From the IMG/VR virus record IMGVR_UViG_2548876937_000011, positions 1-6,743 of that record: 6,743 bases of DNA, one strand, 5' to 3'. The notes under the pieces are model-generated. The model was given only the letters and a program-made list of their open reading frames with translations, was not told the origin of the DNA and searched no databases. The position numbers and the translations under genes are program-made. This document shows, piece after piece, positions 420 through 4,936 of the stretch. Origin of the DNA: a virus. Its lineage: Duplodnaviria > Heunggongvirae > Uroviricota > Caudoviricetes. The first letter of the stretch is position 1. Each line of letters opens with the position of its first letter.

Positions 420-544
420 ATGCGGCACTCCTGGTTAAATTTCATTTTTCGCGGGTATAAAAAAACGATGGGGCGGGCAGTCCGGAAGACGTCAGGTCAC
501 AGAGATTTGACCCGCCCCTCCCCTCAGACAGTTGAGAGTTATTA
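420..544. other. HNH-TerS intergenic region with G/C-rich inverted repeat (GGGGCGGG at 470-477, CCCGCCCC at 511-518); candidate cos/packaging site
   Basis: The inverted 8-mers, 33 bp apart, are seen directly. Their position between an HNH gene and the small terminase gene matches where HK97-like phages place cos. GGGGCGGGCAG loosely resembles the G/C-rich lambda-type cohesive end, but it is not an exact match to any cos I can recall. Confidence 0.3.
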
Positions 545-895
545 TCACTTAAGCCGTTCACGGGCCGTCTTCGCCTTATGACACGGCCAGCACAGACTCT
601 GCAGATTACTGTCGGCATCAGTGCCGCCATGTGCTTTAGGGATGATGTGGTCAACGGTTTTCGCTTCACGCGCCACACCAGCACGCAGACATAACTGACA
701 CAGGCCTTTGTCACGTTGCAGCACACGCGCGCGGATAGCGTCCCACTTAGAACCATAACCGCGCTGATGACGGGATTGTCCTGACTTGTATTGCTTCCAG
801 CCTTCGCTTTTGTGGCTTTCGCAGTAGCCTGACGGGTCTGTCGTGGTATTACGGCAGCCGCGAACGCGGCAGGATTTTGGAGTTCGAGGGGGCAT
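545..895 (-). CDS. Phage-associated HNH endonuclease (packaging-associated)
   Basis: 116-aa ORF with ATG at 895-893 and AGGA upstream. Contains a Cys-rich N-terminus and the HNH core ...DHIIPKAHGG...NLQSLCWPCH... It lies immediately upstream of the terminase small subunit gene, as in HK97-like phages. Confidence 0.9.
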   Translation of the reverse strand: MPPRTPKSCRVRGCRNTTTDPSGYCESHKSEGWKQYKSGQSRHQRGYGSKWDAIRARVLQRDKGLCQLCLRAGVAREAKTVDHIIPKAHGGTDADSNLQSLCWPCHKAKTARERLK

Positions 896-921
896 AAATA
901 TATTCCTGTTCTTTGTCCGGA

Positions 922-1194
922 CTATTTGCCTGCTGCCAGCAAAGCGTTACGGCGCATATCGATACTTCGAATCCCCGCTTTGTCAATATTGCATTGTCCC
1001 AACGCCGAAAGCAGGCTCACATTCAGATCCAGACTGGCCCCATAGGTCAGCGGCTCGGGAATGACTGGCTGGGGAGTTTCAGTAGTCAGGCTTGCTGGCA
1101 ACGGTACCGCCGGAATCGGTACGTAAACTGTTCGCGTACTTCCGCAACCGGTCAGCAGCGGCAGCAGGCACATGACGTGAAGCACAATCATCAT
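922..1194 (-). CDS. Rz1-like o-spanin (outer-membrane lipoprotein), overlapping the 3' end of the Rz gene in the +1 frame
   Basis: Internal ATG at 1194-1192 (second ATG at 1191-1189) within the 922..1422 ORF gives MMIVLHVMCLLPLLTGC...: a hydrophobic signal peptide with lipobox LLTGC, followed by a proline-rich mature region. Start choice (1194 vs 1191) is uncertain. Confidence 0.6.
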   Translation of the reverse strand: MMIVLHVMCLLPLLTGCGSTRTVYVPIPAVPLPASLTTETPQPVIPEPLTYGASLDLNVSLLSALGQCNIDKAGIRSIDMRRNALLAAGK

Positions 1195-1471
1195 CCGCAA
1201 CAGCCACTTTGATATCTTCCTGGGTTCTCTGTGACTCCAGTGCGATCTGCTGTTTTGCATGCTGGTTAGCCTCCAGTACTGTATTGACGATTTGCAGTGA
1301 TTGCAGGATGTTATTGGTAATGGCAGTTGCCAATTTGGCATTTTGTACAGCCTCATCAGCACGTTTCTTTTCGTACTGATATTTGCTGTAGTAGTGGTTG
1401 GCTGACCAGATGAAAGAACCAATGACAGTAACGAAGAAAGCAGAGATAACCAGCTTATAGCTCAACTTCAT
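1079..1471 (-). CDS. Rz-like i-spanin (inner-membrane spanin subunit)
   Basis: 130-aa ORF with ATG at 1471-1469 that overlaps the 3' end of the endolysin gene by 17 nt. It has an N-terminal transmembrane helix (LVISAFFVTVIGSFIW) followed by a charged, coiled-coil-like periplasmic region, and sits directly after the endolysin. Only weak resemblance to lambda Rz as I recall it. Confidence 0.6.
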   Translation of the reverse strand: MKLSYKLVISAFFVTVIGSFIWSANHYYSKYQYEKKRADEAVQNAKLATAITNNILQSLQIVNTVLEANQHAKQQIALESQRTQEDIKVAVADDDCASRHVPAAAADRLRKYANSLRTDSGGTVASKPDY

Positions 1472-1931
1472 TTACCACCCCACCAGCCTCTTTAAACCGG
1501 GAAATCAGGTCGCCAATTTTATGTTCATACTGACCGTAACCTGCACCAGGTAAAGACGCCCAGATATTGCTGCAACGGTCGATTGCCTGACGAATATTGC
1601 CGCGATCAATCATCGGTAAAGCGCCACGCTCTTTAATCTGCTGTAATGCCACTGAGTCCTGGCTTCTGGGAGAGAAGTCTTTCAGCTCAAGCTGCTTGCG
1701 GTAAGCATCCCACCAACGTGAAAGAAGTTGATAACGGCCTGCAGCTGTTGATTTGAGTTTCGGGTTTAGCGTGACAAGTTTGCGAGGGTGATCGGAGTAA
1801 TCAGTGAAGAGTTCGCCACCGACAATAACGTCATAACCGTGGTTACGTGTCGGTTGTCGCCCGTTATCCGTTCCTTCTGACCATGCCACCATATCGAGGA
1901 AAGCTTTACGCTGGGAATTTAGTACCTGCAT
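1455..1931 (-). CDS. R: Endolysin, lambda R-type lytic transglycosylase
   Basis: 158 aa, the same length as lambda R, and very similar to it as I recall the sequence (..NQRKAFLDM.AWSEGTDNGRQ.TRNHGYDVIVGGELFTDYSDHPRKLVTLNPKLKST.AGRYQLLSRWWDAYRKQL.LKDFSP.SQD.VALQQIKERGALPMIDRG.IRQAIDRCSNIWASLPGAGYGQ.EHK...). ATG at 1931-1929 with AGGAG upstream. Confidence 0.9.
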   Translation of the reverse strand: MQVLNSQRKAFLDMVAWSEGTDNGRQPTRNHGYDVIVGGELFTDYSDHPRKLVTLNPKLKSTAAGRYQLLSRWWDAYRKQLELKDFSPRSQDSVALQQIKERGALPMIDRGNIRQAIDRCSNIWASLPGAGYGQYEHKIGDLISRFKEAGGVVNEVEL

Positions 1932-1934
1932 AAA

Positions 1935-2261
1935 TTACTCCTTAGAGCCACCAAACTTATTACCGATTACTCTCATTGCAGCCCCACGAATAGCATCGAC
2001 CCCGATCAGCCCAACGCCGCCACCAATGGCAACAGAAAGAGATTTAGGCCATCCGACATACTCAAGAGCGGATGCAAAAGTCAGTGTCAGGGCGCCACAG
2101 AGAAAAATCTCGAGCGTTTTTCGCTTCCAGCCACCACCACCGCCAAAATAGGCAATGCGCAAGCCAGCCATAACGATCGACATAATTACTGCGCCCAGTG
2201 GTGTGTCTCCACGCCACCAGCTCTGGAACAACTCCAGCCAGGTATTTGGGTTATGAGGCAT
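1935..2261 (-). CDS. Putative holin (three predicted TM helices), not lambda S-like
   Basis: 108-aa ORF whose stop (1937-1935) lies 3 nt before the endolysin start. Three hydrophobic segments (LGAVIMSIVMAGLRIAYF, LEIFLCGALTLTFASALEYVGW, LSVAIGGGVGLIGVDAI) and a charged C-terminal tail. Position and topology fit a class I holin; I do not recognise the sequence as lambda S. Confidence 0.65.
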   Translation of the reverse strand: MPHNPNTWLELFQSWWRGDTPLGAVIMSIVMAGLRIAYFGGGGGWKRKTLEIFLCGALTLTFASALEYVGWPKSLSVAIGGGVGLIGVDAIRGAAMRVIGNKFGGSKE

Positions 2262-2412: not shown

Positions 2413-2435
2413 AAAACCCGCTCGATGGCGGGTTT
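2413..2435 (-). terminator. Rho-independent terminator (minus-strand orientation); candidate tR'-like late terminator upstream of the holin
   Basis: Perfect inverted repeat AAACCCGC (2414-2421) / GCGGGTTT (2428-2435) with 6-nt loop. On the minus-strand RNA the stem is followed by UUUUGUCGUUUCU. On the + strand the tail is weaker (UUUAAGCU). Confidence 0.5.
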
Positions 2436-2469: not shown

Positions 2470-2553
2470 TACAATTTTTTTTGCGTACGCGTTAGTTTTT
2501 TATTACTTTACTTTTTGATACTATCGGCGTGGTTACAAACAAGGAGAACAGCA
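2470..2553 (+). promoter_or_regulatory. AT-rich candidate promoter region and RBS for the + strand cassette (may also hold a divergent minus-strand late promoter)
   Basis: A/T tracts and several weak -35/-10-like hexamers (e.g. TTGCGT at 2481-2486; TACTTT/TATTAC/GATACT between 2501 and 2522), none with good spacing. Strong SD AAGGAG at 2541-2546, 7 nt before the ATG at 2554. Exact promoter elements could not be fixed by eye. Confidence 0.25.
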
Positions 2554-2817
2554 ATGAGTAACTACTTGGAAGTTAAGAGAAAAATTGGTCAATATGCATG
2601 TGTTACTCGGTGGGGTTTTCCCTGTGCCGAGCGTGAAATCACTTTGATACAAAATGACATTAACTCCGCGATTCAAAGTGGTAAAGTTATAAGTCGTAGC
2701 ATGCTCCAAGGCATTATCAGCCGTCATGTTCCCAATACCCATTTCTTAATCACCGACAGTGTGGACAACTCTGATCTTAACACTGCATTAAGAATGCTGG
2801 CGCCAAAACAAAAATGA
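2554..2817 (+). CDS. Hypothetical 87-aa protein, first gene of the AT-rich cassette (function unknown)
   Basis: ATG at 2554 preceded by AAGGAG. Stop TGA at 2815-2817 overlaps the ATG of the next gene (ATGA). The ORF-track version 2515..2817 begins at a TTG with no RBS. No recognisable motif. Confidence 0.7.
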   Translation: MSNYLEVKRKIGQYACVTRWGFPCAEREITLIQNDINSAIQSGKVISRSMLQGIISRHVPNTHFLITDSVDNSDLNTALRMLAPKQK

Positions 2818-3554
2818 ATAATGATGTGTTTCAGATCAGCCCCGACGAAGTAACGTCGGAGCTGATTTCTGCAAAGGAAAGATTTTTACGTGGTATTCAG
2901 CCATACTTGTGTAATGGTATATCAAACCTTGCTGACCTACATGAAATTCAGCAGCATGCTTCAAAATATTTTAATACCGCTGTTAAATTAGTTCAAAAAG
3001 TAGATTTATGTAAACTGGATGACAATAAGACATTTGCCATTTCCTTAGTTGGAGACTGTCGAGCGGTTCTGGAAACTTATTTAGAATACTACGACATGAT
3101 GGTGTCAAACATTAAATGCCTAGAAATTGATCCAAACAATATTGTACTGTATAGCAAAGATGGTCTATCAAACCTCCAAAGAATCATTAAAAAGTATTCA
3201 TCAAAAGATATTTACACACCTATTATTGCTGAATTTGAGTCTCGAAATTTGCCAATCGATGGATTTACTATAGGCACACCAATGAATTGGAAATTAATTG
3301 TCACTGCCATTATTGGATTTTTAAGTTTTTGTATTTTTTTATCAATTACGCTGCTAATCCCAGATTTAAATGAATTTCAAAAGAAAATGATTTTCTCTTT
3401 ATATTTCATGAGCGCGGCCGTTGGAATCTCGCCATTCATTGCAAATAATATAAAGGTCAATGGGAAGATGGCATTTCGTGGTTCGGAATTCAAAGTATCT
3501 GCTGTTGGTGGTTTAGCAGCATTGATTGTTTCTTTCATCATCCAAGTAATTTAG
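2814..3554 (+). CDS. Hypothetical 246-aa membrane protein (soluble N-terminal domain plus C-terminal TM helices); candidate effector of the cassette
   Basis: ATG at 2814 overlaps the upstream stop. About 170 N-terminal residues are hydrophilic, followed by hydrophobic segments WKLIVTAIIGFLSFCIFLSITLLIP, MIFSLYFMSAAVGISPFIANNI and VSAVGGLAALIVSFIIQVI at the extreme C-terminus. Low GC. No recognisable catalytic motif. Confidence 0.75.
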   Translation: MNNDVFQISPDEVTSELISAKERFLRGIQPYLCNGISNLADLHEIQQHASKYFNTAVKLVQKVDLCKLDDNKTFAISLVGDCRAVLETYLEYYDMMVSNIKCLEIDPNNIVLYSKDGLSNLQRIIKKYSSKDIYTPIIAEFESRNLPIDGFTIGTPMNWKLIVTAIIGFLSFCIFLSITLLIPDLNEFQKKMIFSLYFMSAAVGISPFIANNIKVNGKMAFRGSEFKVSAVGGLAALIVSFIIQVI

Positions 3555-3580: not shown

Positions 3581-3922
3581 TCATAGCATTGATAGCACAC
3601 CACTAACAAAACCTAATGCTGTTTGCATATCTTTTCTAATTGTCCCATCAGAACACTTACGCTTCTTCGCAATGGTGCGTAATGAAATACCAATAACAAA
3701 GTGGGCAATAACTAACTCATATTCTTCTTGTTTATATTTACGTAACCGTGCGACACAACCGTCTATCATGATACCTTCATCATCATCACACTGGAGGCGA
3801 GACTTTTTACCGTGTGGTAAAAGCCCCTTGAAGCCTGCTGCTACCGGCTGCCAGTCCACACCACTGTTGTCTGCTGCAGCCCATGCACCCCAGCGGTCCA
3901 ATACTTCATACATATCACGCAT
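3581..3922 (-). CDS. Late-gene antitermination protein Q (QuuD-like, Phage_antitermQ family)
   Basis: The N-terminus MRDMYEVLDRWGAWAA...AAGFKGL...SR.QCDDD...I.GC.ARL.K matches what I recall of E. coli QuuD-type Q proteins. The track ORF starts at a GTG (3937); I prefer the ATG at 3922-3920, which has GGAG 8 nt upstream and aligns with the QuuD N-terminus. Confidence 0.8.
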   Translation of the reverse strand: MRDMYEVLDRWGAWAAADNSGVDWQPVAAGFKGLLPHGKKSRLQCDDDEGIMIDGCVARLRKYKQEEYELVIAHFVIGISLRTIAKKRKCSDGTIRKDMQTALGFVSGVLSML

Positions 3923-3940
3923 CAACTTACTCCACAAAAA

Positions 3941-4936
3941 TCAGGCCAGCACGCCTATTGCCAGCGCACGATCGATAAAACGAAATATCAGCTCCAGCTG
4001 GGAGCCATACTTCTCTTCAAATGCCACGGTATCCGCATGCAGCTCGTCGTGATGCTTTCTGCACAAAGGCAACACAAAGAGGTCATGCGCTTTTGTACCC
4101 ATTCCACCCTGACCGTGGCCTATCAGGTGGTGGGGATCATCAGCAGGCTTTCCACAACATGCACACGGCTGTGTCTTAACCCAGCGCGTGTACTTTTCAT
4201 TAACCCAGCGGCGGCGTTTTGGGCGTAACATAAAAGACTCCGGCGACTCCGGATCCACTTTCAGCGCCAGCACCTTTTTCGCTTTATCCTGGATGATGCT
4301 GGTGGCAGGAACCGAAGGCACAAGGTCACTTTCCCGAGTGACAGACGGCACAACAGGTTTCGGTAATCTCAGTGCCTTACGGGCTGCGCTTTCAGGTAAG
4401 GCATCCGCCAGGTCATTACGAATCAGCCACCAGCACAGTTCCGGCATTGTCACGGCATGGTTATCATCAAAACCGAGATCCCGACGGACTACAGACAACA
4501 CCCAGCGGGCACAGTTATCCGTTGCCATTGATTCCAGCCGTTCCGTGAACTGATCGCGCAGCTGGTTATCGCAGTGCCAGCACAGACGGATTGCGCCCGG
4601 AGCGTGTCGCATTGTTGTCATGTTCTCGCTGTGCCAGTCGGAATGAGGCCACTGGCAGCCTTTTTCACGAAGTAACCAGCTTTCAAGACATTCCACGCCA
4701 CCAGCACGACGGATCACTGCCTCATTGCGGAACACGGCCCGAACGGCAGGATCATCCGCCAGCGGTTGTGATGCCGCCGGAACGGCACCACTGGCGAAAG
4801 ATGAATAACGTTCCGGCTCAGGCTCCAGCAGGACACGTCCCTGCATAAACAGGGGCATCAGCTCTGAACCTGGCCTGAACAATACGATCCCCATACGCGG
4901 GGCAATTTCAGGGGTCAGTAGTGCTCTCACGGTCAC
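3941..4936 (-). CDS. DUF968-family prophage protein (YdfU-like) with C-terminal HNH-like Cys/His cluster
   Basis: 331-aa ORF. C-terminus has CACCGKPADDPHHLIGHGQGGMGTKAHDLFVLPLCRKHHDELH, which I recall as typical of DUF968 proteins found upstream of Q in E. coli lambdoid prophages. Start is uncertain: GTG at 4936 (1 nt after the upstream stop) or ATG at 4894; neither has a clear SD. Confidence 0.7.
   Translation of the reverse strand: MTVRALLTPEIAPRMGIVLFRPGSELMPLFMQGRVLLEPEPERYSSFASGAVPAASQPLADDPAVRAVFRNEAVIRRAGGVECLESWLLREKGCQWPHSDWHSENMTTMRHAPGAIRLCWHCDNQLRDQFTERLESMATDNCARWVLSVVRRDLGFDDNHAVTMPELCWWLIRNDLADALPESAARKALRLPKPVVPSVTRESDLVPSVPATSIIQDKAKKVLALKVDPESPESFMLRPKRRRWVNEKYTRWVKTQPCACCGKPADDPHHLIGHGQGGMGTKAHDLFVLPLCRKHHDELHADTVAFEEKYGSQLELIFRFIDRALAIGVLA

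Follow-up and report, generated by a model that had tools for sequence, protein, structure and literature searches.

Cohesive ends of 3' polarity have been described for phage HK97, which has 10-nt 3' overhangs (PMC9410871), and for phages phiE125 and phi644-2, whose overhang 5'-CGCCCGCTTC-3' is a 10-nt 3' extension as well (PMC2920897). In phage SfI, run-off sequencing of virion DNA at both ends with primers in the HNH and small terminase genes revealed a 10-nt gap, 5'-TGCCCGCCCC-3', in comparison with the prophage; in the same paper the cos mechanism of phage SfV was called 'postulated' (PMC3636060), and the cos site of SfIV was identified via sequence comparison and not by end mapping. The sole biochemically defined part of cos found in the HK97 literature that was searched is the small terminase site. 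Its minimal form is CTAACCCGATTTTTT at +15 to +29, where the protein makes one base-specific contact with the G:C pair at position 21 and reads the shape of an A-tract (PMC11331095). In the lambda-like phages cosQ and cosN are shared and the specificity of cosB follows the small terminase (PMC4669245).

Ten HNH enzymes encoded next to cos have been characterized as strand-specific nickases, and those of phages GVE2 and gamma nick CG^GT, which corresponds to AC^CG on the other strand (Xu and Gupta; PMC3592412). According to the summary of a review, genetic and biochemical evidence that an HNH protein is needed for cos cleavage comes from HK97 gp74 only. One of the two possibilities discussed in the HK97 structural paper is that the HNH protein and the large terminase divide the two nicks between them (PMC11331095).

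Gene setting of the HNH-terminase spacer

The window, i.e., the whole stretch of 6,743 nucleotides analysed here, carries an HNH endonuclease gene adjoining the gene of a P27-family terminase, and the intergenic region between them measures 125 bp, exactly as a preliminary description had read it from the letters. All genes of interest are located on the minus strand:

1-419 (ATG at 419), minus strand: small terminase gene, P27 family, truncated by the left edge of the window
420-544: spacer between the HNH and small terminase genes, 125 bp
545-895, minus strand: HNH endonuclease gene, 116 aa; open reading frame with a match to Pfam HNH PF01844 (E 5e-16)
1079-1471, minus strand: Rz/Rz1, with LysC/Rz1 embedded
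1455-1931, minus strand: lysozyme
1935-2261, minus strand: lambda-family holin
3581-3937, minus strand: Q antiterminator
right of Q, minus strand: Dam-type methylase, RusA, KilA-N protein and DUF968 protein

The small terminase is visible for the first 139 of its 164 codons, and this fragment scored 62.7 bits against PF05119 (Terminase_4; cut-off 24.7). The full-length orthologue from SfV, 98% identical to the window protein, matched TIGR01558 ('small terminase P27 family') with 76.4 bits at a cut-off of 45.6, and the RefSeq annotation of a 99.3%-identical prophage agrees with the assignment to the P27 family. The closest complete genome was that of E. coli LP50-1 (99.3% identity across 98% of the window), in whose prophage the next genes encode the large terminase, the portal, an HK97-family prohead protease (S78), the major capsid protein and a contractile tail.

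The phage right arm ends with the HNH gene, as it does in SfV (orf53, HNH), and the left arm opens with the small terminase gene. To the right of the spacer the HNH gene is accompanied by Rz/Rz1, lysozyme, holin, Q and nin-type genes, which bears out the earlier expectation that everything on this side of cos would be the right arm of the phage chromosome. In the window the right end of a lambdoid late region meets a packaging module at its left end, the arrangement that an integrated prophage should show. Scanning of the whole window against Rfam at gathering thresholds gave zero matches.

Identification of the cos site

The megablast search against phage records showed six records spanning the whole region and several linear records that break within the spacer. 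Phages SfV, SfIV and SfI were about 97-98% identical to the window across the small terminase gene and the spacer, and SfV also across the HNH gene. The records of SfV and SfIV end at window position 487 and start at 486, while the SfI record opens at 469 and its last letters are ...GGACTGCCCGCCCC, i.e., it closes with TGCCCGCCCC (minus strand, 479-470; plus strand, GGGGCGGGCA). Between the G-box, a conserved element listed below, and the small terminase start codon, the window and SfV match base for base, and a single position separates the window from SfI, with A instead of G at 469, just past the overhang.

The breaks in these three records and the gap at the virion ends of SfI uphold the proposal that cos lies in the spacer between the HNH and terminase genes. 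Because the SfI gap corresponds to 479-470, the left arm of the inverted repeat cited in that proposal falls inside the cohesive end, and the G/C-rich stretch GGGGCGGGCAG around it holds all of the cohesive end. In phage-forward order, which follows the minus strand, the site consists of the following elements:

511-523, minus strand: G-box GGGGAGGGGCGGG, -44 to -32 from the first base of the cohesive end; high information content
504-510, minus strand: TCAAATC box, -31 to -25, adjoining the G-box; variants TAAAATC and TCAAAAG
484-503, minus strand: 20-nt spacer of variable sequence and fixed length; low information content, no indels
480-483, minus strand: GGAC, directly left of the cohesive end; junction AC/TG (AC/CG in most relatives; the slash marks the edge of the overhang)
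470-479, minus strand: predicted 10-nt cohesive end TGCCCGCCCC, identical to the SfI gap and to the end of the SfI record
459-465, minus strand: T7 run, 5-11 nt past the cohesive end
443-458, minus strand: ATACCCGCGAAAAATG, candidate small terminase binding site, a GC core with adjoining A-tract, 12-27 nt past the cut

With high probability, positions 443-524 represent the cos of a lambdoid prophage of the SfV type that packages its DNA with an HK97-type machine and cuts it with a 10-nt stagger. Earlier publications have placed cos between HNH and terminase genes, reported that HK97 needs the HNH protein and determined the cohesive end of SfI, so that this finding is correct but was already known.

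Prophages are often defective, and the region might be a decayed, non-functional remnant or might belong to a phage with headful (pac) packaging and no defined ends. Such a reading is very improbable here: the HNH open reading frame and the visible part of the small terminase frame are intact, and the cos core from the G-box to the ribosome-binding site is that of SfV, which has been described as a temperate serotype-converting phage with determined morphology. Moreover, SfI, with one base different just outside the overhang, was isolated as free particles and lysogenises new hosts, the large terminase of the 99.3%-identical prophage is of the HK97 cos type, and the SfI and SfIV papers contrast these two phages with the pac phages Sf6 and SfX (for SfI, PMC3636060).

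A functional cos at this position fixes the prophage map: the virion chromosome would start at 469, run leftward into the terminase and head genes and end at 470-479. Such a map is of help for prophage delimitation, for annotation and for predicting the cos-dependent mobilisation of other elements.

Conserved left half of cos

Related loci were gathered in three sets of 80: via the HNH protein from different bacterial species, as close relatives among viral contigs, and as HK97-gp74 loci. With the cut site as anchor, the regions that follow HNH genes could be aligned free of gaps in 72 of 83 cases. The information profile was calculated from the ungapped alignment of 67 distinct loci belonging to different Enterobacterales species. 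The alignment with the cos sites of HK97 and related phages, which had been suggested as a check, revealed a common layout in the phage-forward direction: the G-box at -44 to -32, TCAAATC at -31 to -25, 20 variable nucleotides, GGAC or GTAC, and a 10-nt block, which in the aligned loci begins with YGCC(C/G)CC and varies in its last three positions. The remaining 11 loci lacked the motif in the 420 bp next to the HNH gene, and most of them carry an extra open reading frame after this gene.

The G-box is the most conserved sequence left of the cut and was also present in loci of the HK97 group and in phages phiE125 and D3; it includes the right arm of the inverted repeat (CCCGCCCC, plus strand 511-518). 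The distance from the end of the TCAAATC box to the cohesive end is exactly 24 nt in the window, in Klebsiella phages, in HK97 and in nearly all of the 67 loci. The first anchor itself contained the cut-site motif, so a second one, consisting of the G-rich block alone, was used: the offset of ACYG was then the same in 61 of 63 distinct loci, at a background frequency of 0.0103 per position. GAC directly precedes the overhang in SfI, HK97 and phiE125, and the last base of the EPP-1, phiE125, D3, HK97 and SfI records coincides with the predicted end of the overhang. The Marinobacter AS1 and Serratia LittleDog records lacked the layout at their right ends; these ends may be arbitrary, or the cos sites of the two phages differ.

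No mention of an upstream element resembling the G-box and TCAAATC was found in the HK97 packaging literature that was searched. The large terminase channel of the HK97 termination complex is filled up to the portal with about 25 bp of DNA (PMC10359639), and with such a length the conserved block would be located at the motor-portal end while the nuclease occupies the cut. Mutations of the lambda portal suppress cosQ mutations, as the title of a cited paper states. Because of this channel length and the lambda portal suppressors, a cosQ-like role of the G-box and TCAAATC is plausible. From its position, similar to that of lambda cosQ, the G-box may act as a recognition element for the terminase and HNH protein or as a termination element. 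The more specific proposal, that the G-box and TCAAATC (504-523) form a hitherto undescribed functional subsite of the HK97-type cos of a cosQ-like kind, with AC/YG as the nick site of the HNH protein, is made tentatively, and we consider it somewhat more likely to be wrong than right.

Right half of cos and the small terminase

On the right-hand side of the cut the DNA is exchanged along with the small terminase gene. At least four discrete types, each with its own small terminase gene, could be distinguished, and the window belongs to the type TTTTTATACCCGCGAAAAATGAAATTTAACCAGGAG. One locus, L088, joins an HNH gene and a left half of the window type to another right half and another small terminase. 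This co-swapping in the family of the window parallels lambda cosB, since both track the small terminase gene. A T-run near the position of the T7 run was present in all right-hand types of cos and in HK97.

Within the right half, the core CCGCGAAA is invariant in all loci that carry the window's type of small terminase, and it is replaced along with the gene in the other types. The window carries ACCCGCGAAAAA at +14 to +25, and 443-458 resembles the small terminase site of HK97 over a short stretch, at an offset of 4 nt. Judging from this co-variation and likeness, 443-458 may be the binding site of the small terminase. The protein itself had no similarity to HK97 gp1 in BLASTP (E 7.1) and no sequence match in the PDB; gp1 matches neither PF05119 nor TIGR01558, while the SfV/window protein matches both.

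These comparisons dissect the HK97-type cos into two parts. Its invariant left half, made up of the G-box, TCAAATC, the fixed spacing and GAC/YG, goes with the large terminase and the HNH protein, while the interchangeable right half goes with the small terminase. What appears modestly new is the invariance of the left half with its fixed spacing from E. coli phages to phages of Burkholderia and Pseudomonas, in a form that fits the nick specificity of the HNH enzymes.

The inverted repeat

The preliminary description had pointed to inverted 8-mers 33 bp apart as a mark of cos, and both were found as described: GGGGCGGG at 470-477, within GGGGCGGGCAG at 470-480, and CCCGCCCC at 511-518, with 33 nt in between. 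As a bare repeat this pair is marginally beyond chance, and its significance comes from position and conservation and not from repeat statistics: a perfect inverted repeat (arms of 8 nt or more, loop 3-60 nt) appeared in 290 of 5000 dinucleotide shuffles of the 125-bp spacer (5.8%), the whole window contains 11 pairs of the same kind, and GGGGCGGG was found twice against 0.18 expected, a number reached in 3 of 200 shuffles.

All eight pairs are retained in just 6 of the 67 distinct related loci. The Watson-Crick fraction was 0.51 in register, compared to 0.42-0.60 in slid registers, and the longest complement between the two arm regions across the relatives was typically 4-5 nt. The G-box variants GGCGGG and GGGAGG were found with every type of overhang; because they combine freely with the overhang variants, the arms show no covariation. 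Since the conserved layout separates the two arms, they are parts of two separately conserved elements, the cohesive end and the G-box. The 8-mer inverted repeat is an incidental by-product: its arms belong to the C-rich cohesive end and to the G-box, respectively.

Two other readings would give the pairing a function. The repeat might form a hairpin in the late transcript, with eight G-C pairs followed by ATCGTTTTTTT, acting as a terminator or attenuator between the HNH and terminase genes, or a cruciform that marks cos. On the minus strand the arm CCCGCCCC is indeed followed by the T7 run 4 nt later, and the 8-bp stem is present in the minimum-free-energy RNA fold, but the loop is 33 nt long, the site was absent from the output of a terminator scan (loop 3-8), and the z-score of the fold was just -1.76, with 8 of 200 shuffles folding equally well. 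The pairing statistics among the relatives given above speak against it as well, and the terminase genes downstream need transcription from the same late operon. An intrinsic terminator or cruciform was rejected on the grounds of loop length, weak z-score and missing conservation and covariation, and we assign this reading almost no probability. In the other reading, the two G/C 8-mers are inverted half-sites of one dimeric protein, e.g., a terminase subunit or the HNH protein, looping out 33 bp. Both arms do lie inside strongly conserved blocks at a fixed spacing, and a weak common GGCGG/CCGCC core is shared by many relatives. Half-sites of one protein, however, are hard to reconcile with arms that do not covary: many loci, those with the G-box GGGGGAGG and the overhang CGCCGCC, have 3-5 complementary bases only, and HK97 pairs GGGGGGGGG against CGCCGCC. 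In addition, cutting destroys one arm, which is variable at its 3' end, while the other arm stays constant. This makes the half-site reading highly unlikely.

The HNH protein and a model of cos cleavage

The window HNH protein has an N-terminal zinc ribbon (C9xxxxC14 ... C25xxH28) followed by a complete HNH core with the CxxC pairs C66xxC69 and C102xxC105, D82-H83, N97 and H106. The comparison with homologues showed that its metal-binding and catalytic residues, i.e., the D-H, N, H and CxxC pairs, are conserved. It was 96.6% identical to SfV orf53 and 40% identical to HK97 gp74 over 65 aa (BLASTP, E 7e-11), while its best solved relative was the GVE2 HNH nickase 5H0M (E 2e-12, full length). 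The characterized nickases N.phiGamma and N.phiE2 of GVE2 resemble it in size, in the combination of an N-terminal zinc ribbon with an HNH core and in a gene that adjoins cos and the terminase genes, and their nick site CG^GT fits the AC/CG junction of the cos family to which the window belongs. In contrast to the window protein they belong to phages with Gram-positive hosts; plasmids and not cos served to map their nicks, and the junction in the window reads CA^GT, compared to the characterized CG^GT. The first base of the overhang (T or C) was associated with HNH residues, with the top columns in the zinc ribbon and linker (residues 21-38), but the association is confounded by relatedness, since the loci with T are also the closest relatives of the window.

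Both run-off reads of SfI lacked the 10 nt, giving a gap and not an overlap, as expected if the template strands are recessed, and a 3' overhang is inferred for SfI on this ground. By analogy with this gap and with the 3' ends of HK97 and phiE125, the ends in the window would be 3' overhangs, too. Because the left edge of the overhang is AC/CG, a nick at 5'-CG^GTC-3' falls exactly where a 10-nt 3' overhang needs one. The AC/YG junction, taken together with the CG^GT specificity of the nickases, suggests that the HNH protein nicks one strand and the large terminase the other. This division of labour is put forward tentatively, since a 2026 review still has gp74 as a stimulator of cleavage by the large terminase, merely enhancing it in vitro.

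In the resulting model, late transcription would start in the Q/lysis region at the right, proceed through the HNH gene and across cos, and enter the terminase genes. The terminase would cut the concatemer at cos with a 10-nt stagger, leaving a virion right end with the 3' extension TGCCCGCCCC (479-470, minus strand) and a left end that starts at 469. The HNH protein would nick the plus strand of the window at 5'-CA^GTCC-3', between 479 and 480, at the left edge of the overhang, and the large terminase nuclease would nick the minus strand between 470 and 469, 10 nt away. The G-box and TCAAATC, 25-44 bp upstream of the cut, might be read by the large terminase and HNH protein or by the motor-portal assembly and would serve a cosQ-like termination, while the small terminase would bind the GC core and A-tract at 443-458 and thereby confer packaging specificity. 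If true, the model with one strand nicked by the HNH protein and the other by the large terminase would answer why HK97-type phages need an HNH protein.

Comparison with known systems

The cohesive ends of lambda, to which the G/C-rich stretch had been loosely compared in the preliminary description, gave a best ungapped match of 7/12 to GGGCGGCGACCT, at position 471. The likeness is weak and compositional only, and a lambda-type cos was rejected on account of this score, of terminases from other families and of the different length and inferred polarity of the overhang. At the level of layout the two sites have more in common. Lambda also has a short conserved element about 25-30 bp upstream of the nick, the cosQ heptamer GGGTCCT at -30 to -24. 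In both, the overhang is conserved near the upstream element and variable at its far end, and the small terminase has a specific binding site downstream, which is exchanged along with the small terminase gene (PMC4669245). Lambda differs in its 12-nt 5' overhangs, the lack of an HNH protein, a gpNu1/gpA terminase of other families and the presence of an IHF site, and its G-rich strand is oppositely oriented relative to the packaging direction.

Phages phiE125 and phi644-2 follow the plan of the window, with a G-box, an A-rich heptamer, about 20 nt and then GGAC/CGCCCGCTTC, and so does D3 with a G-box, an A-rich heptamer, about 20 nt and then ..AC/CGCGCCCCCA. phiE125 and D3 come from distant hosts (Burkholderia and Pseudomonas, respectively), and their HNH proteins are about 50% identical to that of the window. 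The spacing in D3 is off by one and would suit a 9-nt overhang; the overhang of D3 is 9 nt long.

In HK97, as in the window, no other gene separates the HNH gene from cos, the forward strand of the 10-nt end is rich in C and follows GAC, and a G-run and TCAAATC ending exactly 24 bp before the overhang precede it; the plan of the HK97 group is GGGGGGGGATCAAATC, 21 nt and then GAC/CGCCGCCAAA. The HNH protein, large terminase, portal, protease and capsid protein are homologous, the last four being judged on the LP50-1 prophage, whose large terminase is 26% identical to HK97 gp2 over 520 aa (E 7e-31) and has the same two Pfam domains. The differences concern the overhang itself (CGCCGCCAAA compared to TGCCCGCCCC), the distance between the HNH gene and cos (about 320 bp in HK97 compared to 65 bp in the window), the right-hand half of cos, the tail genes, which are of a contractile type in the prophage relative of the window, and the small terminase, of the P27 family in the window and without detectable similarity to gp1.

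The closest likeness is with SfV, SfI, SfIV and SfII, which share the cohesive end TGCCCGCCCC, the G-box, TCAAATC, the spacer and the leader of the small terminase gene, as well as the gene order of lysis genes, HNH, cos, P27-family small terminase and large terminase. Directly after the HNH stop codon the window is of the SfV type, unlike SfI and SfIV, and its host and the remaining prophage differ from this group, the closest genome being E. coli LP50-1. The ends of SfI were mapped on virion DNA; those in the window are predicted. The module had been called HK97-like, and this holds for the HNH protein, the large terminase and the head genes. On these comparisons the site belongs to the SfV/SfI cos group by identity and to the wider HK97-type 3'-cos family by its layout and its HNH, large terminase and head proteins, with the small terminase as the exception to this family membership.

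Exchange at the cos site

Among the related loci compared, one and the same HNH gene together with the left half of cos (G-box to cut) was found joined to differing right halves and differing small terminase genes, with at least four types present. Examples include L088 (1840-2010), L102, L104, L105 and others, and in these loci the recombination joint lay at the cohesive end or just beyond it. In some prophages the HNH gene was separated from cos by an additional small ORF, as seen from the 200 nt past the HNH stop codon; the loci concerned were L102, L112 and L154, and L122, L133, L134, L138, L158 and L166.

The last 60 nt of Pseudomonas phage D3 (L259) also contained the G-box, followed by a heptamer in the form TCAAAAC, while the distance from the heptamer to the AC|CG junction was 23 nt instead of 24 nt. 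A cut falling 24 nt past the heptamer would be expected to leave a 9-nt end, GCGCCCCCA, with which the published D3 overhang presumably agrees.

Other features of the window

Three features were located around the Q antiterminator gene:

2414-2435, minus strand: perfect hairpin of 8 bp (AAACCCGC/GCGGGTTT), its loop 6 nt long and its tail T-rich, located upstream of the holin gene and some 1.1 kb downstream of Q
2515-3554, plus strand: two ORFs of 100 and 246 aa between the Q and holin genes, on the strand opposite to theirs
3941-4936, minus strand: DUF968 protein of 331 aa, directly upstream of Q

For the hairpin, a candidate role is that of a tR'-type terminator in the late leader, with polymerase modified by Q expected to read through it. 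The opposite-strand segment had a G+C content of 36%, against 50% for the whole window, and the second of its ORFs (246 aa) encoded C-terminal hydrophobic stretches; neither ORF was assigned to a Pfam or PADLOC family. The segment looks like a moron. The DUF968 protein gave a weak HNHc_6 nuclease match at its C-terminus, so a second nuclease of the HNH type may be encoded in the window.

Comparison with known systems

In the closest E. coli prophage, LP50-1, a GrlR-family regulator gene is inserted between the Rz1 and HNH genes (L255, 9988-10308), in contrast to the counterpart of this site in the window (896-1078), which is free of such a gene. In three of the prophages in which the extra ORF separates cos from the HNH gene, this ORF encoded CCHC zinc-knuckle-like repeats, recalling the separate zinc-ribbon proteins adjoining HNH nickases described by Xu and Gupta (PMC3592412).
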